From assembly GCA_023267195.1 (NCBI GenBank), contig JAHFNT010000004.1, forward strand, positions 603 through 64,602: DNA of 64,000 nucleotides. Reading direction: 5' to 3'. Below are positions 3,887-47,365 of the stretch, in pieces (positions within the stretch are counted from its first letter, which is position 1; each line of letters opens with the position of its first letter). Source of the DNA: Candidatus Nomurabacteria bacterium. Lineage in GTDB: Bacteria > Patescibacteriota > Minisyncoccia > Phycocordibacterales > UBA9973. The notes under the pieces are model-generated. The model saw nothing but the letters and a program-made list of their open reading frames with translations. It did not search any database and had not been told where the DNA came from. Both the position numbers and the translations under genes were made by a program.

Positions 3887-4303
3887 CTACCTGGGGCGAA
3901 ACACGAGGATCTTAGCGCCTTCCTTTTTTATGTGCGGAGTGACCCGCACCCACGCGATATCTGGGTCCTCCATTACCCAGTCGCGATCGATTTCTTGCCA
4001 GCCTATGGGCTCATCGACGCACACGAACGGCACGAAGAGCCGGCCGTCTGACGCGCGCCGTATGGAGCCATAGAGAAACACTTTGAATCTACCGAAGAGC
4101 TCTCGGAGAGCCTCGGGGTTTCGAAGCATTCCTCTACCGTCGGCCAGATTGAGTATCCGGTTCACCTTTGAAAGGTCAAAAATGGTGGGACCGGAGTTCT
4201 CTAGCTCGGGGTGAAGAGGGATCGCTCCCTCGATCGGGCAGACCGTGCTGGAAGCATAGTCTGCGTGAACGACGTATTGGTTTGGCACCAGATGCAGAGC
4301 CAT
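3887..4303 (-). CDS. hypothetical protein encoded in a GC-rich islet
   Basis: 138 aa with G/C-dominated codons, unlike the neighbours. Strong SD (AAAGGAGAGGAGC) then ATG. Upstream TTGACA -35-like box about 40 nt 5' of the start. A CCCCAGG/CCTGGGG hairpin overlaps the stop. Confidence 0.55.
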   Translation of the reverse strand: MALHLVPNQYVVHADYASSTVCPIEGAIPLHPELENSGPTIFDLSKVNRILNLADGRGMLRNPEALRELFGRFKVFLYGSIRRASDGRLFVPFVCVDEPIGWQEIDRDWVMEDPDIAWVRVTPHIKKEGAKILVFRPR

Positions 4304-6937: not shown

Positions 6938-7280
6938 CAAGCCCTGTATCCTATAAGCCGAATTCTGTAGTTCCGACCAAGGTCGGACGATAGCAATTTG
7001 TCTAGGTCCTCAATTACTTTCGGACTCAAGCGATTCTTCCCTCGACTACGCTCGGGACTAGTCCTGAGCTTGTCGAAGGACACGATCTTGCACAGGAGTA
7101 AGTATTTAGCCGTTTCACCCCTTCGGCCGAAGCCTCAGGACTCGTCTCTGTTCGCAACTCCACATTGCTGTGGGAGGGCGTTACCCTCTACTTATTTTCG
7201 CCCTGCATAAATACAGGGTGAACTGTGTTCGGACTTTCCTCTCCGACCTGGGTCGGAGTAGCTATCAAGATACAGGACCA
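6938..7280 (-). ncRNA. rnpB: RNase P RNA, bacterial type A
   Basis: Minus-strand read shows P1 GGUCCUGUAUC paired with GAUACAGGGCU. It has the P3 hairpin CUCCGACC-CAG-GUCGGAG, the P4 5' strand AGGAAAGUCCGAAC, GGGUAACGCC, UGCGAACAGAGACGAG, GGGGUGAAACGGC and CCUAGACAAAUUGC. The P4 3' strand ACAGAAUUCGGCUUAUAGG is compensatory to GUCCGAA. These match the universally conserved M1 RNA blocks, and at about 343 nt the length is right. Confidence 0.85.
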
Positions 7281-7286
7281 ATTGCA

Positions 7287-7314
7287 ATTATACTACGAAT
7301 TTTTAATATGTAAA
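7287..7314 (-). promoter_or_regulatory. sigma70-like promoter of rnpB (TTTACA-16-TATAAT)
   Basis: Minus-strand TTTACAtattaaaaattcgtagTATAATtgcaaU followed by GGUCC, the P1 start. It overlaps the stop codon (7303-7305) of the upstream DUF192 gene. Confidence 0.6.
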
Positions 7315-7746
7315 TAGAACGCTATCCCCTAACTGTAAATTATTTTTATCCGCAAAGCCGGCCACAACCTCTAATACGTATTTTGCATTTTCATTCGGTC
7401 CGTAAGTTTCCGGATATGATTCCGGCATTGCATTTTTTTGTATATAAATAACTTTCAGGTTCTCATCAAACCAAATAATATCAATCGGAAAATTCATATC
7501 CTTCATCCAAAAAGAATACTTGCCGGGCTTTTCAAAAATAAACAGCATGCCGGTATCTTCCCCGAGTTCGCTTCTGCCACCCAAGCCCTTTTCTTTTTGT
7601 TCACTCGTTAAAGCCAACTCAACTTTTATTTCCTGATTCGCAATTTTTATATATTTGATGTTATCAAAACTTACGGCCGTCCAGAAATGATAACCGATAA
7701 AGAAAAGAATCACGAGCGCGGCAAAACCAGTTAAATAATTTTTCAT
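7303..7746 (-). CDS. DUF192 domain protein
   Basis: 147 aa. N-terminal TM, FWMKDMNFPIDIIWFD motif typical of DUF192/COG1430. Confidence 0.65.
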   Translation of the reverse strand: MKNYLTGFAALVILFFIGYHFWTAVSFDNIKYIKIANQEIKVELALTSEQKEKGLGGRSELGEDTGMLFIFEKPGKYSFWMKDMNFPIDIIWFDENLKVIYIQKNAMPESYPETYGPNENAKYVLEVVAGFADKNNLQLGDSVLFTY

Positions 7747-9134: not shown

Positions 9135-9204
9135 TTCCTTAATTTTAAGTTAAATTAAAAATTATTATAGCAACTAGTCAAAAAATTGCAATAGATTTTC
9201 CTCC

Positions 9205-9262
9205 ATAAACAGAGAAGCCCACCCGAGACGGAGAGGGTGAGCCTCTCGCGCCCCGGGTGGGC
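9205..9262 (-). terminator. intrinsic terminator after small ORF A
   Basis: GCCCACCCG...CGGGTGGGC stem enclosing a GAGAGG/CCTCTC sub-hairpin, followed on the minus strand by UUCUCUGUUUAU. Confidence 0.5.
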
Positions 9263-9266
9263 GATG

Positions 9267-9482
9267 CTACCACCTCAGATAGTTGTGTCTCTGCGCCGAT
9301 AGCTCGAAGCGCTTGAGGGCCTCCATATCCTCAAGCGTGAGGATGGCCACCCGAAACCCCCTATAGAACGAAGTCTCGGGCACAACGACCTCCATACTCT
9401 CCTCGTGGCTCGCGCGGAGAGTAGCCAGTCGAGGTATGGGAACAGTTTTGTCGCCCAGGGTCTCTTCCGGATCATTGGACAT
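9267..9482 (-). CDS. small GC-rich hypothetical protein (module A, about 71 aa from the ATG)
   Basis: SD AGGAG then ATG. Strongly GC-biased codons. Sits between promoter A and terminator A. No recognisable domain. Confidence 0.4.
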   Translation of the reverse strand: MSNDPEETLGDKTVPIPRLATLRASHEESMEVVVPETSFYRGFRVAILTLEDMEALKRFELSAQRHNYLRW

Positions 9483-9537
9483 TTTCACTCCTTCTGGGCC
9501 TTGTGGCCCAACTCAACGAACTTTTGAAACTACCGAC

Positions 9538-9566
9538 ATTGTACACCTCTTTGGCTTTTTTGTCAA
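9538..9566 (-). promoter_or_regulatory. near-consensus sigma70 promoter A (TTGACA-17-TACAAT)
   Basis: Minus strand TTGACAaaaaagccaaagaggtgTACAAT, followed by the conserved leader GUAGUUUCAAAAGUUCGUUGAGUUGGGCC-acaa-GGCCC hairpin and the SD. Confidence 0.6.
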
Positions 9567-9582
9567 GTTTGGCGGGTAATAT

Positions 9583-9612
9583 AAAGAAAAAAGGCCGCCG
9601 GTGAAGGCGACC
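9583..9612 (-). terminator. intrinsic terminator after small ORF B
   Basis: Minus strand GGUCGCC-uucacc-GGCGGCC followed by UUUUUUCUUU. Confidence 0.5.
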
Positions 9613-9644
9613 TGTTGCCGAGGACCGACGCGGTCTTTGGCGGA

Positions 9645-9791
9645 TTACTGCCCCCGTCCGAGGGCAGAGAGGAGACGCTCCGGGTAGAACACCCAGGGCA
9701 CTTCCTCGGGGGGCGGGGGCGAAGGAGGAAGGGGGCGGTGCCGGAGTTCCGGCACCCCGTTGTGAATTAGGATGTACCAGTGGACGTACAT
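9645..9791 (-). CDS. small GC-rich hypothetical protein (module B, about 48 aa from the internal ATG)
   Basis: ORF-track ORF 9645..9875 begins inside the -35 box of promoter B. The only start downstream of the predicted TSS is the ATG at 9791, with SD AAGGA 6 nt upstream. The product is Pro-rich. Confidence 0.3.
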   Translation of the reverse strand: MYVHWYILIHNGVPELRHRPLPPSPPPPEEVPWVFYPERLLSALGRGQ

Positions 9792-9846
9792 GCCATATCC
9801 TTTCCGGGCCAATAGGCCCAATTCGACGAACTTTGAAACTAACGGT

Positions 9847-9875
9847 ATTATACACCCTCCTGTATTTTTTGTCAA
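9847..9875 (-). promoter_or_regulatory. near-consensus sigma70 promoter B (TTGACA-17-TATAAT)
   Basis: Minus strand TTGACAaaaaatacaggagggtgTATAAT plus the same conserved leader with hairpin GGGCC-uauu-GGCCC. It is a paralogous copy of module A, about 75-80 percent identical over about 105 nt. Confidence 0.6.
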
Positions 9876-9898
9876 GCCCTTTGTGGGTAAAAGAAAAA

Positions 9899-9926
9899 CC
9901 GGGCTCCGCGATCGCGCGGGGCCCGG
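9899..9926 (-). terminator. intrinsic terminator after ORF C
   Basis: CCGGGCCCCGCG-cgat-CGCGGAGCCCGG hairpin followed on the minus strand by UUUUUCUUUU. Confidence 0.45.
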
Positions 9927-9953
9927 GGCGGGAGACGGACGAATCCGCTTTCC

Positions 9954-10163
9954 CTAGTACGAACGGCGTCCGAGATGGGAGAGATCGGGTACTTCCCCCA
10001 CCCCTTTCCGACGCCTGCGTTCGAACGTCGTCGGATGGAGTGTCGGTTCTGCCGAATCGGAAGAACCGAACCGGGAGAGGTCTGGAAAGCTTTCGTCGAT
10101 GTGTAGATCGTCCGCTAGGGACGATGAACACGATTCGGTCGGGATTTTGTTATCGTCTGGCAA
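9954..10163 (-). CDS. small GC-rich hypothetical protein (module C, TTG start)
   Basis: SD AAAGGAG 9 nt upstream of TTG. Lies directly downstream of tgt. Could be a spurious ORF in high-GC DNA. Confidence 0.25.
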   Translation of the reverse strand: MPDDNKIPTESCSSSLADDLHIDESFPDLSRFGSSDSAEPTLHPTTFERRRRKGVGEVPDLSHLGRRSY

Positions 10164-10212
10164 GATTTGGAACTCCTTTCTTTATTCAGGATAACACGAT
10201 TTAGAAATAAAA

Positions 10213-11430
10213 TCAACTATTTTTTATATATTGATCCAAAAATTCTTTTTTAAACTCAAAAAATTTATCATCCAATATGCTTTGTCTGATTTTTTTCACA
10301 AGGTTCACGATGAAATATAAATTGTGGATTGAAGCGAGAGTCCCCGCGAGCATTTCCTTCCCATGGAAAAGATGCGCGATGTAACTCTTCGTATAATGCT
10401 GACAAGTGTAACAGCCACAATCTTTTTCAATCGGCTCAAAGTCATTTCTAAATTTTGTATTCATAATTATTATTTTCCCAGACTTGGTGTAAATAGTTCC
10501 ATTCCGGCCAAGACGGGTCGGGGCGACACAATCAAAAAGATCCACGCCATTTTCTATCCCCATAAATAAATCTTCTGGTTCCCCTATCCCGAGCAAGTGT
10601 CTAGGCTTTTCTTCAGGCAAAATTTCATTGACCCATTTCACAGCGGTAGACATGTCTTCTTTCGCAAAACTTCCGCCGATACCAAAACCATCAAAGTCTA
10701 GATTTCCGATAAACTTGGCAGATTTTTTTCGCAAATTTTCATCTCGTCCGCCTTGAACAATGCCGAAAAGCGCAGAATCACCGCCTAATTTTCTATGTTC
10801 AATCAAACTCCTCTCCGCCCAGCGGTGCGTTCTTTCCAATGCTTCTTCTTGATACTGCAAATCTTCTGCTGGGCTCGTGCACTCATCAAAAGCAAAAATT
10901 ATATCCGCGCCTAAATTGTGCTGAATCTCAATTGATTTCTCTGGAGTAATGTAATGAATAGAGCCATCAAGATGCGACTTAAAGGAAACTCCATCTTGTC
11001 CTATCTTTGCCAGTCTGGGAGCATCACTATCATCAAAACGTTCTGGTATTAAAAGAGAAGGATCAGTGATTTTTGTAATTTTGGAAATATCTTTTCCGTA
11101 CGCAGCGCCTAAAGAAAAAACTTGAAAACCTCCGGAGTCAGTCATCGTCGGACCTGGCCAATTCATAAATTTCCCAATTCCGCCGGCGTCGCGCACGATC
11201 TCATCGCCCGGTTGTAAATATAAATGATAAGTATTGCCGAGGACTACTTGTGTGCCCGCCTCTCTTACTTGTTCTGGATTTAAAGATTTGACCGTCGCCT
11301 TCGTACCCACGGCGACGAAGGCTGGGGTTAAAATATCTCCATGCGGAGTTTTTAAAACACCCGCCCGCCCTAGACTATTTTTCAGTTTTTTCTCTATTTG
11401 AAAATTCATAAATTCACCCTCTCTGGTCAT
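10213..11430 (-). CDS. tgt: queuine tRNA-ribosyltransferase
   Basis: 405 aa, TIM-barrel Tgt motifs, C-terminal zinc site CGCYTCQH. Confidence 0.9.
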   Translation of the reverse strand: MTREGEFMNFQIEKKLKNSLGRAGVLKTPHGDILTPAFVAVGTKATVKSLNPEQVREAGTQVVLGNTYHLYLQPGDEIVRDAGGIGKFMNWPGPTMTDSGGFQVFSLGAAYGKDISKITKITDPSLLIPERFDDSDAPRLAKIGQDGVSFKSHLDGSIHYITPEKSIEIQHNLGADIIFAFDECTSPAEDLQYQEEALERTHRWAERSLIEHRKLGGDSALFGIVQGGRDENLRKKSAKFIGNLDFDGFGIGGSFAKEDMSTAVKWVNEILPEEKPRHLLGIGEPEDLFMGIENGVDLFDCVAPTRLGRNGTIYTKSGKIIIMNTKFRNDFEPIEKDCGCYTCQHYTKSYIAHLFHGKEMLAGTLASIHNLYFIVNLVKKIRQSILDDKFFEFKKEFLDQYIKNS

Positions 11431-32851: not shown

Positions 32852-32911
32852 ATCTTATACCTTATAGCTTATGTAAATAAAAAACAAGAAATATCACTAC
32901 TACAATTGCGA

Positions 32912-32949
32912 AGGCCCCGACGCTGTTCTCCTTTCGGAAGCGTCGGGGC
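32912..32949 (-). terminator. terminator of the GC-rich three-gene insert
   Basis: GGCCCCGACGCT...AGCGTCGGGGCC, a 12 bp stem followed on the minus strand by a T-rich tract. Confidence 0.5.
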
Positions 32950-32983
32950 CCGCGTGAGCGATATGCTCGATTGTGTGAACTAA

Positions 32984-33640
32984 CTACTGGGACGGCGAGA
33001 TCCCGGGGTGGGCATCTTCGCCGGTCGCCCCGCAGTTGAGGCACTTGTAGCGCACCCCACTGCGGACCATCAGGCTCCCGCACTCGTGGCAGTTGGGTGC
33101 GTCGGTGCTGTTCTGAAAGGGCTCGTTGTGTCCGCCAGAAACGATTGGACCAACACACGGATGCGGCTCCATACCGTCCACGGGCTGGAAATCGACCACC
33201 GGCTTGTGAGTCGGAGCCGCCACCGGCCTGACCGACAGGAACCGCGACGCAAGCCAGCGGACGATGTAGTCCACAAGACTCTCGGCGATGGGGATCTCCG
33301 GGTTCTTCGTGTAGCCCGACGGCTCGAACCGCATGTGGCTGAACTTCTCGACCAGGGCGTCGAGCGGCACGCCGTACTGGAGCGTGAGGGAGATGGCCGT
33401 CGCGAAAGCGTTCATGAGACCCGAGATCGTGGAGCCTTCCTTGGCCATCGTCAGGAAGATCTCCCCCGGGGTGCCGTCCTCGTAGAGGCCGACGGTGATG
33501 TAGCCCTCGTGCCCCGCGACCGAGAACTTGTGCGTGAGCGCGCGCCGCTCGTCGGGCAGCTTGCGGCGTCGTGGGGCGGCGTTGGCTCGCGCGAACGCGA
33601 GCACGACGCCCGGCGGGAAGAGAAATTCACCACTTTTCAT
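32984..33640 (-). CDS. TSCPD-domain protein with C-terminal zinc ribbon (stand-alone homolog of the class II RNR C-terminal domain)
   Basis: FSVAGHEGYITVGLYEDGTPGEIFLTMAKEGSTISGLMNAFATAISLTLQYGVPLDALVEKF matches the TSCPD domain. C-terminal CHECG...CLNCG. SD GAAGGAGGG. Strong GC3 bias. Confidence 0.65.
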   Translation of the reverse strand: MKSGEFLFPPGVVLAFARANAAPRRRKLPDERRALTHKFSVAGHEGYITVGLYEDGTPGEIFLTMAKEGSTISGLMNAFATAISLTLQYGVPLDALVEKFSHMRFEPSGYTKNPEIPIAESLVDYIVRWLASRFLSVRPVAAPTHKPVVDFQPVDGMEPHPCVGPIVSGGHNEPFQNSTDAPNCHECGSLMVRSGVRYKCLNCGATGEDAHPGISPSQ

Positions 33641-33664
33641 ATTAGGGCCCTCCTTCGGCCCCTT

Positions 33665-33892
33665 TTACCATTTTGCCCGGAGACGCCGGGCGGCGTTTCT
33701 GCGATCTCTCGCGCATGAATTTCGGTTTTTGCACCTAGGGCACTTGTAACATTCGTGCCCACCGTGCTTAACCAGCTCAGTGTAACTTCCACACAAGGTA
33801 CACCGAGCCTGTAGTGGATTGAGTGGATTGGTGGGCGACCAAAGGTAGTCGTAGCGGGACGTTGGGCTTAACCCAATTTCATCTCTTGGCAT
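33665..33892 (-). CDS. small zinc-ribbon protein (CxxC...CxxC)
   Basis: 75 aa. CTLCG...CPRC. SD GGGAGG. GC-rich. Confidence 0.5.
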   Translation of the reverse strand: MPRDEIGLSPTSRYDYLWSPTNPLNPLQARCTLCGSYTELVKHGGHECYKCPRCKNRNSCARDRRNAARRLRAKW

Positions 33893-34059
33893 GCCAACCT
33901 CCCGTTAATACTATTATTCGTAGTGACACAGCAGTCACTACAAAGCCCACAGACGCTGGGGCGGGTGAGAACCCCGCACTTCTCACACCTTACCAACGAA
34001 GGCGGCTTCATTCCCCATCCCGGAAACAGAAACTGCATAAGGAAGGATTTTAATGTCAT
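33868..34059 (-). CDS. small zinc-ribbon protein (CxxC...CxxC)
   Basis: CEKCG...CGLCSDCC. The internal ATG at 34059 is preceded by SD GAGGGGAGCGAGG. The ORF-track start at 34101 would be leaderless from the promoter. Confidence 0.45.
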   Translation of the reverse strand: MTLKSFLMQFLFPGWGMKPPSLVRCEKCGVLTRPSVCGLCSDCCVTTNNSINGRLACQEMKLG

Positions 34060-34105
34060 CCTCGCTCCCCTCGCTTTCTTTTTTTGTTTTAGGAACTTCA
34101 TCTAA

Positions 34106-34134
34106 AAATTACAATTTTACAGAGATTATGTCAA
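34106..34134 (-). promoter_or_regulatory. promoter of the GC-rich insert (TTGACA-17-TAATTT)
   Basis: Minus strand TTGACAtaatctctgtaaaattgTAATTTttagATG. Confidence 0.45.
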
Positions 34135-44758: not shown

Positions 44759-46117
<1,359 letters not shown>

Positions 46118-46120
<3 letters not shown>

Positions 46121-46831
46121 TTCTCTAAAATAAAATACGTCATCCCCATTTAAGCCCTTTTTGTCATCAAAATCGCGGGCGTCAATAATTGAAATTCTTA
46201 ATTTTTTTACTAAGTAAGCCTGTTGTCGAATATGATTGACTATGGTGTGCCAATCAAATTTTATATCGCCGAAAATTTCTTTGTCTGGTTCAAAAGTTAT
46301 GACCGTACCGTGCAGTTTTGAGGCACCGATCTTTTTTACCGCCGACTTTTTCTTGCCCTGTGAATATTCTTGCAAATATTTTCCACCATCTCGGCATACT
46401 TCTGCCCTGCAATAAATAGAAAGGGCATTCACCACCGAGGCCCCAACACCGTGCAAGCCTCCAGAAACTTTATACCCTTCACCTCCGAATTTTCCCCCCG
46501 CATGTAAAGTTGTCATGACTGTCTCGAGCGCAGAAACTTTTGTTTTCTTGTGCATGTCAACAGGAATACCTCGGCCATTATCTGCAACACGAATGCGATT
46601 ATCCGGAAGTAAAACAATTTCTATGTCATTACAAAAACCACCCATGGCTTCGTCGCGGGAATTGTCAAAAATCTCCCAGACGAGGTGGTGCAATCCATCC
46701 GGTCCAGTTGTCCCAATATACATACCTGGACGTTTCCTGACGGGCTCTAGGCCTTCTAAAACGGAAATGTCAGAGGCATCATAATGATGGCCTTTATCGC
46801 CATCCTTTTTAACCGTCTCGTCTTTTGCCAT
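46118..46831 (-). CDS. gyrB: DNA gyrase subunit B, N-terminal GHKL ATPase fragment
   Basis: HHLVWEIFDNSRDEAMGG, NGRGIP and GLHGVGASVVNALS ATP-lid motifs. Extended -10 TGCTATAAT about 10 nt upstream of the start. Confidence 0.8.
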
Positions 46832-46984: not shown

Positions 46985-47365
46985 GGAGGTCGCCCGCGTG
47001 AAGCGAACGACCTCCGATACGACTACCAGATTTCCTCCCCCCTTGCCGCCACGGAAGCAGGGTCAGCGTCCTCTGGGGGATAAGAACGCTCACCCTCCTC
47101 GGCCCGTTTCTCGTCCGACCGAACGACAGCACTCGATTCCCCATCTCGGGGAAGACGACGCAGTCGAGGCTTCGATCGAACAAGGCAGTCGCTACTGAAC
47201 GGGTCAAGCTCCAGGTGTCCCATGACTTCTCCTTCTGCTCACAGACGCATACTTCGCATGCAGGTGAGCATGCTGGGTACAAACACTTTATGCCCAAGAT
47301 GCTCACCTCATGGAAAAACCTAAAAGAACAAAATACCAGTCTTCGTTAGAAGGCTGGTATTTAGG
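46985..47365. other. GC-rich hairpin-rich intergenic element (candidate structured RNA), strand unresolved
   Basis: Stable hairpins: GGAGGTCG...CGACCTCC (46988-47030) with T-run on the minus strand, GGTGAGCAT-27nt-ATGCTCACC (about 47265-47315), and AAATACCAGtCTTCgttaGAAGgCTGGTATTT (47333-47364). ORFs here are Arg-rich and one reads through a terminator hairpin. Confidence 0.35.

Follow-up and report, generated by a model that had tools for sequence, protein, structure and literature searches.

The locus described here is most readily compared with phage morons. In the concept of Hendrix and Juhala (summarised in PMC2920897), morons are recognised as extra DNA with an own promoter and terminator and a deviant GC content. 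They lie between genes that are adjacent in relatives, vary in cargo at one hotspot and mostly encode products of no assigned function. A second related system is found in Cluster K mycobacteriophages, where the SAS, a 13-bp sequence (GGGATAGGAGCCC), is located 3-7 bp upstream of start codons and occurs 13-20 times per phage genome (PMC3203893). In the ESAS the Shine-Dalgarno (SD) motif is directly preceded by an inverted repeat; the authors argue against an RNA hairpin, and SAS and ESAS are presumed to concern translation initiation (PMC3203893). Integron cassettes and CALIN arrays consist of tandem small ORFs of no assigned function with an inverted repeat after each. Stand-alone or split NrdJ C-terminal proteins (TSCPD, PF12637) are a further known class, which bears on a second islet described below.

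The window analysed here is a 64-kb stretch of a Candidatus Nomurabacteria genome. It contains a GC-rich islet on the minus strand (9205-10216), reaching from the tgt stop codon (10213-10215) to the speA promoter, in which three tandem transcription units are predicted, called C, A and B in their order of transcription. The islet shares with morons the insertion between genes adjacent in relatives, the own predicted promoters and terminators, the deviant GC content, the varied cargo at one hotspot and the products mostly of no assigned function. It differs from them in residing in the core chromosome of a CPR organism and not in a phage or prophage, in that two of its units share a duplicated promoter-leader, and in that its expression signals were found by scanning the sequence. 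We interpret the block, with moderate confidence, as three autonomous, moron-like small-gene units that are stacked in a tgt-speA hotspot and specific to this lineage.

The first-pass annotation of this DNA had described a GC-rich islet in an AT-rich genome, and sliding-window analysis bears this out: GC is 0.556 in 9185-10210 (56% in 9205-10216, reaching 0.65 in 200-nt windows), compared to a mean of 0.391 outside islets (sd 0.030, maximum 0.473, 1-kb windows). Codon usage is atypical for the genome in all islet ORFs (z = -3.5 to -5.5), similar to that of the foreign NrdJ fragment of the second islet (z = -6). The flanks consist of the core genes tgt, mreBC, speA, DUF192, RNase P RNA and glnA. 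Downstream of the islet the native speA promoter is kept (9164-9191, minus strand; TTGCAA-16-TATAAT with extended -10), which is homologous to ATTGCAT..TTGTTATACT in four related loci (L012, L063, L077 and L057). Likewise upheld is the earlier description of the block as self-contained units, each with promoter, leader, ORF and terminator, that are stacked one after another and atypical in their GC-rich composition.

Comparison with 80 related Candidatus Nomurabacteria loci showed that the tgt-speA gap is 42-155 bp in most of them and 1.05 kb here; the close relatives L001-L004 have a spacer of 42 bp. Since tgt and speA are nearly adjacent in relatives, the block, which the first-pass annotation had placed between these two genes, is an insertion. 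Varied cargo is present at the same junction: L012, L063 and L077 each have one homologue of unit C, L057 has two GC-rich units that differ from each other, and L033, L036 and L041 have a small ORF of normal AT content. Judged from these loci, this conserved intergenic junction is a permissive hotspot that has repeatedly taken up self-contained small-gene units with a foreign-like composition.

The unit nearest to tgt is C. Its predicted promoter (10188-10216, minus strand; TTGATT-17-TATCCT) overlaps the tgt stop codon with its -35 element and is homologous to TTGAYTTTATTTTAA..GGTATAGTT in L012, L063 and L077; it is present only in unit-C-bearing genomes. The ORF of 69 amino acids with a TTG start (9954-10163, SD AAAGGAG at 10173-10179) precedes the other two, as had been noted, and is followed by an intrinsic terminator (9889-9926) with a 12-bp GC stem (9926-9899), a 4-nt loop and TTTTTCTTTT. 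The deduced protein is acidic and predicted to be disordered, carries two PDLSxxG motifs, and was modelled by AlphaFold2 without secondary structure (pTM 0.15). Family members are P0012-P0014 and the proteins of L012, L063 and L077, and the window and these three loci have in common that the gene lies directly downstream of tgt, that its promoter matches TTGAYTTTATTT..T(A/G)T and that the protein carries PD(L/M)SxFG near its C-terminus. Pairwise BLASTP gave E = 3e-5 for the window protein against that of L063 and E = 2e-5 for L063 against L077. Among the homologues, the motif RRAVP..PDLSxFG(RxxY*) survives synonymous third-position and CGC to AGG (Arg) changes; a conserved RNA fold was not found in the family. 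Because the homologues share the promoter and a motif that is held through synonymous changes, unit C is a real gene for a small, acidic, apparently disordered protein with a repeated PDLSxFG-type motif. Within the loci compared it belongs to a tiny, new, patchily distributed family that is restricted to Nomurabacteria and located at the tgt-speA site. Its GC-richness persists across species, so that a high GC content does not have to stem from a recent import. The third unit is not to be counted as a recent foreign addition: it is a patchily occurring gene of Nomurabacteria that has a promoter of native type and recurs at this site in three other species.

Units A and B are preceded by two copies of a promoter-leader module. 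Copy A (9792-9912, minus strand) starts with a T-run and TTACCCAC and has a -35 element at 9875-9870, a -10 element at 9852-9847, a predicted transcription start near 9840, the leader UAGUUUCAAAGUUCGUCGAAUU, a hairpin at 9819-9806 and an SD sequence at 9805-9798. The respective positions in copy B (9483-9600, minus strand) are 9566-9561, 9543-9538, near 9531, 9509-9496 and 9495-9488. Both promoters had been described as near-consensus sigma70 promoters on the minus strand, and they match the consensus at 12/12 (TTGACA-17-TATAAT, 9875-9847) and 11/12 positions (TTGACA-17-TACAAT, 9566-9538); in the whole window these are the only two TTGACA-N16-18-TAnAnT sites. From the consensus matches we infer that the two units may be highly expressed. 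The copies are located 309-310 nt apart and are 78-79% identical in ungapped blocks of 45 and 33 nt; over 124 aligned columns, in which the stem of the terminator ahead of each copy and the spacer between SD and ATG are counted as well, identity is 68%. Their alignment score is far above that of shuffled sequences (z = 12) and stays so without both hexamers (z = 9.9), which agrees with the earlier claim that the similarity extends beyond the -35 and -10 elements. On this alignment the two promoter-leader copies are true paralogues.

The 5-bp hairpin that the first-pass annotation had placed directly 5' of the SD in both leaders was confirmed as GGGCC-N4-GGCCC, followed by the SD sequences GGAAAGGA (copy A) and AGAAGGAG (copy B) with an SD-ATG spacing of 5-6 nt. 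All 10 stem bases are identical in the two copies and all four loop bases differ. Altogether, three GGGCC/GGCCC hairpins are found in the 64 kb, where 0.1 are expected, and each is located at the SD of a GC-islet gene; none is present in the loci fetched from other Nomurabacteria. The leader was also sought outside the window, and searches with four patterns found no copies of leader or promoter in viral, genome and metagenome collections. An nhmmer search of the window and 87 loci for further copies yielded only a marginal match in the L057 promoter region (E = 0.0017) and promoter resemblance of a generic kind, as in L040. The hairpin resembles SAS and ESAS in its GGG...CCC symmetry at or just upstream of the SD and in its position before the starts of unrelated small genes, which are non-structural genes in the case of SAS and ESAS. 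It differs from them in sequence (GGGCC-N4-GGCCC followed by the SD, or GGGCC-GAAGGAG-GGCCC), in copy number, with three copies in 64 kb, and in its context, which is not that of a phage; the similarity is thus one of architecture only and the motif does not belong to SAS/ESAS. Readings of the leader as CRISPR repeat, T-box, RNA thermometer or attC site were dropped after inspection by eye, given two copies 309 nt apart, an SD outside the hairpin and the absence of the associated genes.

Downstream of the two leaders lie different small ORFs, in agreement with what had been described. The ORF of unit A (9645-9791, minus strand) would encode a proline-rich orphan protein of 48 amino acids, and its body is dense in perfect hairpins, with the inverted repeats I8, I10 and I11 inside the ORF. 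GC at the three codon positions is 0.73/0.45/0.78, a signature that does not separate the ORF from the antisense frame. Unit B would encode an orphan of 71 amino acids (9267-9482, minus strand), whose gene was also called on three contigs of other assemblies; here the values of 0.60/0.40/0.71 follow the coding-frame pattern GC3 > GC1 > GC2. Among 5.8e9 clusters the unit B protein found only itself, and among 1.84e9 representatives it found no homologue, the two non-query matches being repeat-protein artefacts. Its AlphaFold2 model, computed from the single sequence, is of low confidence (pLDDT 58.8) and shows a beta-hairpin followed by a helix. The claim that each unit is closed by its own intrinsic terminator holds for C and for A, where a stem at 9613-9592 with eight pairs (six of them G-C) is followed by the T-run TTTTTTCTTT (terminator 9582-9613, minus strand). 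For B, the predicted terminator (9205-9262, minus strand) consists of a long hairpin (I1, 9262-9217) with the poor T tract TTCTCTGTTTAT. Neither the three ORFs nor eight ORFs in alternative frames had a match in Pfam, PHROGs, NCBIfam, PADLOC or PDB sequences. The first-pass annotation had likewise not recognised the small proteins.

Units A and B, for which no protein homologue was found, might instead give rise to structured non-coding RNAs that belong to a family not yet described, with the small ORFs and SD-like sequences being incidental or the RNAs having a dual function. Strong promoters, GC-rich hairpin-dense bodies and terminators would suit stable RNAs, 14 local inverted repeats were found in the 1 kb of the islet, and RNase P RNA, a known structured RNA of this AT-rich genome, is likewise GC-enriched. 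The full A and B transcripts have fold z-scores of -3.7 and -4.8 (-3.1 for both without the terminators, -2.7 for the A ORF by itself) and thus fold more stably than coding controls (+1.3 to -0.7), as a structured RNA would; RNase P RNA has -5.1. These unusually stable folds make a structured-RNA reading of the A and B products possible beside the protein reading. However, A yields a fold of equal stability on its antisense strand (z = -3.4), a sign of palindrome content more than of an RNA specific to one strand, and the bodies of A and B share neither sequence nor structure. In both copies a canonical SD is placed 5-6 nt before the ATG that opens the longest GC3-biased frame, and the neighbouring unit C, which has the same layout, is demonstrably protein-coding and lacks a conserved fold. 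Rfam 15 gave nothing in the islet at gathering score; even with a limit of E <= 10 the best matches had E = 0.27-6.8 and lay far below the gathering scores. A match to a known housekeeping RNA family, which would have spoken against the first reading, was thus not found. On balance we consider the non-coding RNA explanation unlikely, although it is the one to be taken most seriously among the alternatives.

Two further GC-rich regions are located in the window. The second islet (32900-34110, minus strand) lies between the KH-protein gene and trmD in the rpsP-KH-trmD operon, at a site where relatives have 83-392 bp, and contains two small Zn-ribbon ORFs and an ORF of 218 amino acids (32984-33640). 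The latter corresponds, with an intact frame, to the TSCPD/C-terminal domain of NrdJ, the B12-dependent ribonucleotide reductase (RNR). It matches PF12637 above the gathering score (E = 3e-13, 50.1 bits, cut-off 22.8) and NF005122 (B12-dependent RNR) with E = 2.6e-61 over the domain region, which is below the whole-protein cut-off. The ORF is 70% identical to P0018 and to acidobacterial NrdJ C-termini, terminal zinc ribbon included, and the matches with a named source come from Thermoanaerobaculia, Vicinamibacteria and Acidobacteriota. It resembles stand-alone or split NrdJ C-terminal proteins in its PF12637 and NF005122 matches and the zinc ribbon; it differs from them in having no adjoining catalytic RNR barrel and in lying within GC-rich DNA inserted into the AT-rich genome of a CPR organism. 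Upstream of it, the hairpin GGGCC-GAAGGAG-GGCCC (33645-33661) carries the SD in its loop. A third small GC-rich unit (46985-47300, minus strand) is arranged in the same way: an upstream hairpin and the SD AAGGAG precede an ORF for an acidic orphan of 66 amino acids (47023-47223), and a terminator follows it (47015-46985).

The acidobacterial affinity of the NrdJ fragment together with the same hairpin supports a foreign high-GC origin, which the first-pass annotation had proposed for the cassette. For islet 1 such an origin is plausible from composition and by analogy with islet 2. GC-richness is confined to the ORF bodies, while promoters and leaders are rich in AT, resemble those of the host and are not foreign. 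The bodies were most likely acquired horizontally from high-GC DNA, as has been shown for the NrdJ fragment. A donor for the ORFs or the DNA of islet 1 was not found in protein collections or by blastn against phage and plasmid collections.

If the bodies were acquired in this way, they could also be functionless, decaying scraps of foreign DNA, brought in for example by natural competence and illegitimate recombination, with the ORFs being chance frames. GC-rich DNA is poor in stop codons, and a spurious open frame of 219 amino acids indeed spans two units of the islet; A and B are orphans, islet 2 holds only a fragment of a large gene, and HGT and competence genes have been reported for Patescibacteria (PMC12455944). 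Junk would not be expected to show promoter, leader, hairpin and SD twice, precisely placed before ORFs, with a terminator after each unit, nor a hairpin whose stem is conserved while its loop has diverged. In addition, the NrdJ piece is exactly a complete TSCPD domain in an intact frame, and the genomes of this group are streamlined, their intergenic spacers measuring 50-150 bp. We therefore regard the scrap explanation as improbable. Still less probable is that the block belongs to a mobile element of a recognised type (integron cassette array, IS, MITE or prophage remnant). This would account for an array of unrelated small ORFs with an inverted repeat after each and for the patchy presence among relatives, and the hairpin beside the SD recalls the SAS and ESAS of Cluster K mycobacteriophages (PMC3203893). 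Yet the neighbourhood lacks integrase, transposase and phage genes, and the islet showed neither a mobility gene nor flanking direct repeats or a target-site duplication. PHROG, phage and viral-contig searches gave no match, and blastn of the islet DNA against plasmid and phage collections showed no similarity; the leader is absent from the collections searched and the module has only two copies. Like integron cassettes and CALIN arrays, the islet has tandem small ORFs of no assigned function with an inverted repeat after each, but integron cassettes are normally promoterless and here every unit carries a promoter, T-runs follow the inverted repeats in the manner of terminators, no integrase-like ORF lies in the neighbourhood, and inspection by eye recognised no attC-like conserved R/L boxes. 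Viral matches to the hairpin-SD motifs occurred in about the number expected by chance and did not align beyond the search pattern. The sharp compositional jump could, finally, be an artefact of high-GC reads joined to a low-GC contig. The same islet with 0-1 base differences and the same flanks is present in contigs of four other, independent assemblies (ERZ27279977, ERZ27279942, SRR14366796 and SRR14366791), so the islet is not an assembly chimera; host-type promoters and terminators are interleaved with the GC-rich parts, and other species have homologous single-unit versions. A chimera or contamination is thus hardly credible.

Under the preferred reading, a stack of moron-like units, A and B would have been added downstream of C, each as a module copy of about 110 nt joined to an unrelated GC-rich body with its own terminator. 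The module comprises a terminator tail, a consensus sigma70 promoter, the 5' UTR, the GGGCC-N4-GGCCC hairpin and the SD. Host RNA polymerase would start at the consensus promoters, and the conserved hairpin might keep the ribosome binding site exposed and insulated from the hairpin-prone GC-rich body, or stabilise the mRNA. The terminators would stop read-through, by which speA would keep its own promoter. The GC-rich bodies would have entered by horizontal transfer from high-GC DNA, as for the NrdJ fragment of islet 2, and would have been put under host-type signals. The products are probably accessory, for example in host or phage interaction.

Among CPR bacteria, Nomurabacteria included, genomes are tiny and streamlined, hosts are not known and many genes lack an assigned function. 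In this setting, one strong promoter-leader has been copied and is placed to drive two unrelated orphan ORFs. If expressed, the units would be candidate lineage-specific accessory factors, for instance in interactions with host or phage, the promoter-leader could serve as it stands as a strong expression signal in these uncultivated organisms, and the acidobacterial affinity of the captured NrdJ domain would give a testable lead to ecological partners. More speculatively, the bacterium might re-use the promoter, 5' UTR and GGGCC/GGCCC hairpin at the ribosome binding site as a native expression adaptor that domesticates high-GC scraps from neighbour or host bacteria; the NrdJ fragment points to Acidobacteriota. 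We hold this to be a long shot. If true, the GC-rich islets would be a record of the host of Nomurabacteria and a route for new small genes in ultra-small genomes. The locus does not overturn current understanding and represents a well-defined case of gene gain by small cassettes.

The bodies of the three units were also compared with each other. Neither BLAST nor local alignment against dinucleotide shuffles nor a C-family profile supported paralogy of A, B and C. The sole hint of kinship is a 13/17-nt match between the ORFs of C and A at their 3' ends, which is in register with the repeat period (LSxLGR).

The GC-rich block between tgt and speA (islet 1, 9205-10216, minus strand) has a G+C content of 55.6%, with 200-nt windows reaching 0.65, against a mean of 0.391 (sd 0.030, maximum 0.473) for 1-kb windows in the rest of the 64 kb. 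The sliding-window check thus bears out the first-pass annotation, which described a GC-rich block in an AT-rich genome. The block contains three units in the transcription order C, A, B, each with promoter, Shine-Dalgarno (SD) sequence, ORF and terminator. The ORFs of 69 aa (unit C, TTG start, 9954-10163), 48 aa (A48, 9645-9791) and 71 aa (B71, 9267-9482) were found as described earlier, as was a terminator for each unit, that of unit B having a poor T tract. The same sequence is present in four other assemblies, with no more than one difference over the length of the islet, which rules out an assembly chimera.

The genes flanking islet 1 encode Tgt (PF01702) and a PLP-dependent Orn/Arg decarboxylase (speA); MreB/MreC, DUF192, RNase P RNA and GlnA are encoded farther out. 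Relatives were represented by 80 loci from a decarboxylase scan of species-representative genomes, nearly all labelled Candidatus Nomurabacteria, Paceibacterota or Patescibacteria. The tgt-speA spacer is 42 bp long in the closest relatives, whose decarboxylase falls in the same 90% cluster, and 48-155 bp in most of the 80 loci, compared with about 1.05 kb in the window. Islet 1 is therefore an insertion at an otherwise tight junction. This junction is an insertion hotspot, with one GC-rich unit each in L012, L063 and L077, two different GC-rich units in L057, and an AT-normal small ORF in L033, L036 and L041. The class A RNase P RNA (RF00010; 6938-7277, minus strand) scores 98.7 bits (E = 3.8e-30), just below the gathering score of 100, and is therefore missed at the default Rfam threshold; its orthologues in related loci reach 102-147 bits.

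What is unusual in islet 1 is the duplicated promoter-leader-hairpin module preceding A and B. The two near-perfect sigma70 promoters proposed for the minus strand were both recovered in a promoter scan, TTGACA-17-TATAAT for copy A (9875-9847) and TTGACA-17-TACAAT for copy B (9566-9538), and a regular-expression search for TTGACA-N16-18-TAnAnT found only these two sites in the whole window. The copies are spaced 309-310 nt apart and are 78-79% identical in two ungapped blocks, or 68% over 124 aligned columns if the stem of the terminator before them and the spacer between SD and ATG are counted. Their similarity begins in the tail of that terminator, at the T-run and TTACCCRC, and runs to the SD sequence. 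The alignment scores 12 sd over shuffles and 9.9 sd with both hexamers deleted, which confirms that the copies are paralogous beyond the -35 and -10 hexamers. Each leader also carries the expected hairpin, GGGCC-N4-GGCCC (9819-9806 in A, 9509-9496 in B), with the SD directly 3′ of it (GGAAAGGA in A, AGAAGGAG in B). The copies agree at all 10 bases of the stem and differ at all four of the loop. In centroid folds of the A and B transcripts most of the SD is unpaired. In the fetched locus L040 the speA promoter, CTTGACAAAAATGGTATTTAGGTGTATAAT, is very similar to the A/B promoter; searches of viral, genome and metagenome collections with the leader and promoter patterns gave no match.

A second islet (islet 2, 32900-34110, minus strand, GC 0.60) is inserted between the KH-protein gene and trmD of the rpsP-KH-trmD operon, a site at which relatives have 83 bp, or 392 bp with one small Zn-ribbon ORF unit. 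It contains two short ORFs for Zn-ribbon proteins, of 77 and 75 aa, and a 218-aa stand-alone NrdJ C-terminal/TSCPD ORF. The latter, the largest (32984-33640, minus strand), corresponds to the TSCPD/C-terminal domain of a B12-dependent ribonucleotide reductase (50 bits against PF12637, E = 2.6e-61 against NF005122), with no reductase barrel upstream. It is 70% identical over 190 aa to the protein match P0018, and its source-named matches are from Thermoanaerobaculia, Vicinamibacteria and Acidobacteriota. Foreign DNA is present in this sister islet, and, judged by its sequence relationships, the NrdJ ORF is direct evidence of high-GC bacterial DNA entering this genome. Its SD is located within the loop of GGGCC-GAAGGAG-GGCCC (33645-33661). 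Altogether, the window has three occurrences of GGGCC-N3-8-GGCCC (0.1 expected), each at the ribosome-binding site of a gene in a GC islet, and the pattern is absent from the loci fetched from other Nomurabacteria. A translation-start hairpin specific to this genome thus connects islets 1 and 2.

The single unit of L012, L063 and L077 is in each case homologous to unit C. All three begin right after the tgt stop and have the same promoter, TTGAYTTTATTTTAA...GGTATAGTT (TTGATT-17-TATCCT in the window), which is seen only in genomes with unit C. The products share the patches SLxDDxHI and RRAVP...(V/T)PD(L/M)SxFG, and the C-termini of the window and L063 proteins read ...PD(L/M)SH(L/F)GR(R/H)(S/T)Y-stop. 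Unit C is conserved at the protein level; codon differences in the C-terminal block include GAT/GAC, CAT/CAC, GGA/GGG and CGC/AGG (Arg to Arg), which is the mark of selection on the protein. The consensus RNA fold of four sequences is negligible (-8.8 kcal/mol, terminator apart), and AlphaFold2 with the four-sequence alignment gave no secondary structure (pTM 0.15). The family is very small, with three other clusters among 5.8 billion, and is scattered patchily over the relatives, being missing from closer ones. Unit C is a genuine, lineage-restricted gene. The shared promoter, the motif, the fold results and the patchy distribution indicate that it encodes a small acidic protein, predicted to be disordered and with a repeated short motif, and that it was not recently imported from a high-GC organism, despite a body that is GC-rich in every species carrying it.

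The bodies of A, B and C show no relationship by BLAST, local alignment against dinucleotide shuffles or the C-family profile. The only hint of common ancestry comes from the C and A ORFs, whose 3′ ends (…LSHLGR… and …LSALGR…) match at 13 of 17 nt, in phase with the 310-nt period. We lean slightly towards A and B being coding cassettes. The codon-position profile of B71 is of coding type (GC1/2/3 = 0.60/0.40/0.71), and its gene is called on contigs of three other assemblies. Among 5.8e9 clusters only the query itself was found, and an exhaustive phmmer search of 1.84e9 representatives returned, besides the query, two repeat-protein artefacts. AlphaFold2, run on B71 as a single sequence, gave a weak model (pLDDT 58.8) in which a beta-hairpin precedes a C-terminal helix. 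A48 is proline-rich, and composition does not separate its frame from the antisense frame. The islet-1 ORFs and the alternative frames gave no Pfam, PHROG, NCBIfam, PADLOC or PDB match.

That A and B are instead structured non-coding RNAs is a genuine rival, since their full transcripts fold unusually well against dinucleotide shuffles (z = -3.7 and -4.8) and the 1 kb of islet 1 contains 14 local inverted repeats. Without the terminator both score -3.1, and the ORFs alone -2.7 (A) and -1.8 (B); three segments of the GC-rich NrdJ-derived gene give -0.1 to -0.7, five segments of native genes +1.3 to -0.7, and the RNase P RNA -5.1. However, A folds just as well on its antisense strand (z = -3.4), which suggests palindrome content and not a strand-specific RNA. 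Both copies keep a canonical SD 5-6 nt ahead of the ATG, their bodies lack mutual similarity, and unit C, with the same layout, is coding. We therefore regard the structured RNAs as unlikely. No Rfam family matches in islet 1, known housekeeping ncRNA families included.

Codon usage, compared with the rest of the genome, is atypical in all islet ORFs (z = -3.5 to -6), as atypical as in the NrdJ fragment. For islet 1 the foreign, high-GC origin suggested in the first-pass annotation is plausible, foreign DNA having entered the genome in islet 2. No donor was found for islet 1 (blastn against plasmid and phage collections gave no match). The promoters and leaders of its units, by contrast, are AT-rich and of host type, and unit C is no recent import. 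The observation is confirmed and its interpretation partly supported. Islet 1 is best read as a set of autonomous small-gene cassettes with a horizontal flavour, located in a CPR bacterium's core chromosome. A third GC-rich unit (46985-47300, minus strand), in the divergent gyrB/pheS intergenic region, follows the plan of the islet-1 units, with a long hairpin upstream, the SD AAGGAG, an ORF for an acidic orphan protein of 66 aa (47023-47223) and a terminator with a 13-bp stem. Rfam and Pfam gave no match to this unit. The neighbouring gyrB (44759-46831, minus strand) reads as a 237-aa ORF for the N-terminal part (46118-46831) and a 438-aa ORF for the C-terminal part (44759-46075), 42 nt apart. 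Possible reasons are a sequencing error, a natural split, and a frameshift or stop.

Transcription by the host sigma70-type polymerase would start near 9840 and 9531. The hairpin next to the SD might keep the ribosome-binding site accessible or stabilise the message before the GC-rich, hairpin-prone bodies; it is possible that the palindrome is a DNA-level operator, a role with which the 7-nt spacing in islet 2 is harder to reconcile. The terminators may insulate the units from one another and from speA, which probably retains its own promoter (9191-9164). The module could have spread through local duplication and then been joined to new bodies, the products being putative accessory small proteins. 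We consider it very unlikely that it is a re-usable expression adaptor domesticating DNA from a high-GC partner.

The closest known concept is the phage moron, extra DNA between genes adjacent in relatives, with its own promoter and terminator, deviant GC and insertion hotspots (PMC2920897). Islet 1 agrees in three of four criteria but lacks the phage context; it works like a moron, yet is none by definition. In Cluster K mycobacteriophages the SAS/ESAS elements place GGGATAGGAGCCC ahead of the start codons of unrelated small genes, in some cases with an inverted repeat in front (PMC3203893). The hairpin-SD arrangement of the islets is alike, whereas sequence and copy number differ, and viral contigs match the hairpin-SD motifs at chance frequency. 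There is no support for integron cassettes, IS/MITEs or prophage remnants: integrase, transposase and phage genes and flanking repeats are absent, and each unit has its own promoter. Horizontal transfer into Patescibacteria and their competence genes are documented in general terms (PMC12455944).

A group of IMG/VR viral contigs (L100, 3070-3150; L113, 6772-6850; L124, 5729-5806) has in common a conserved leader of about 80 nt upstream of small ORFs, which ends in TTGGGCC-N4-GGCCC-GGAAAGGAA followed by the start codon. It has no Rfam match and no convincing alignment to the window leader beyond the search pattern.

A 138-aa ORF (3887-4303, minus strand; GC about 0.55, codon usage z = -4.4) is located between two coiled-coil protein genes of the window. 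A 141-aa ORF between coiled-coil protein genes in L012 (7222-7647) shares, by eye, HLVP... and HPELE.SGP..FDL.K with it. If the two are homologous, GC-richness alone is no mark of recent import. Small ORFs with raised or strongly GC3-biased composition were also seen in L044 (7006-7323, minus strand), L025 (8410-9342, minus strand), L057 (100-870, plus strand) and L094 (1540-1800, plus strand), at sites after a tRNA gene, between tgt and speA and between KH and trmD. Those in L044, L057 and L094 are surrounded by an AT-rich host-type promoter/SD and a terminator; L025 is recorded as an ORF only. This suggests a general habit of small-cassette gain at intergenic junctions in Nomurabacteria. A related Paceibacterota locus, L028, carries a group I intron (RF00028, 75.9 bits) at 7128-7375 on the minus strand.
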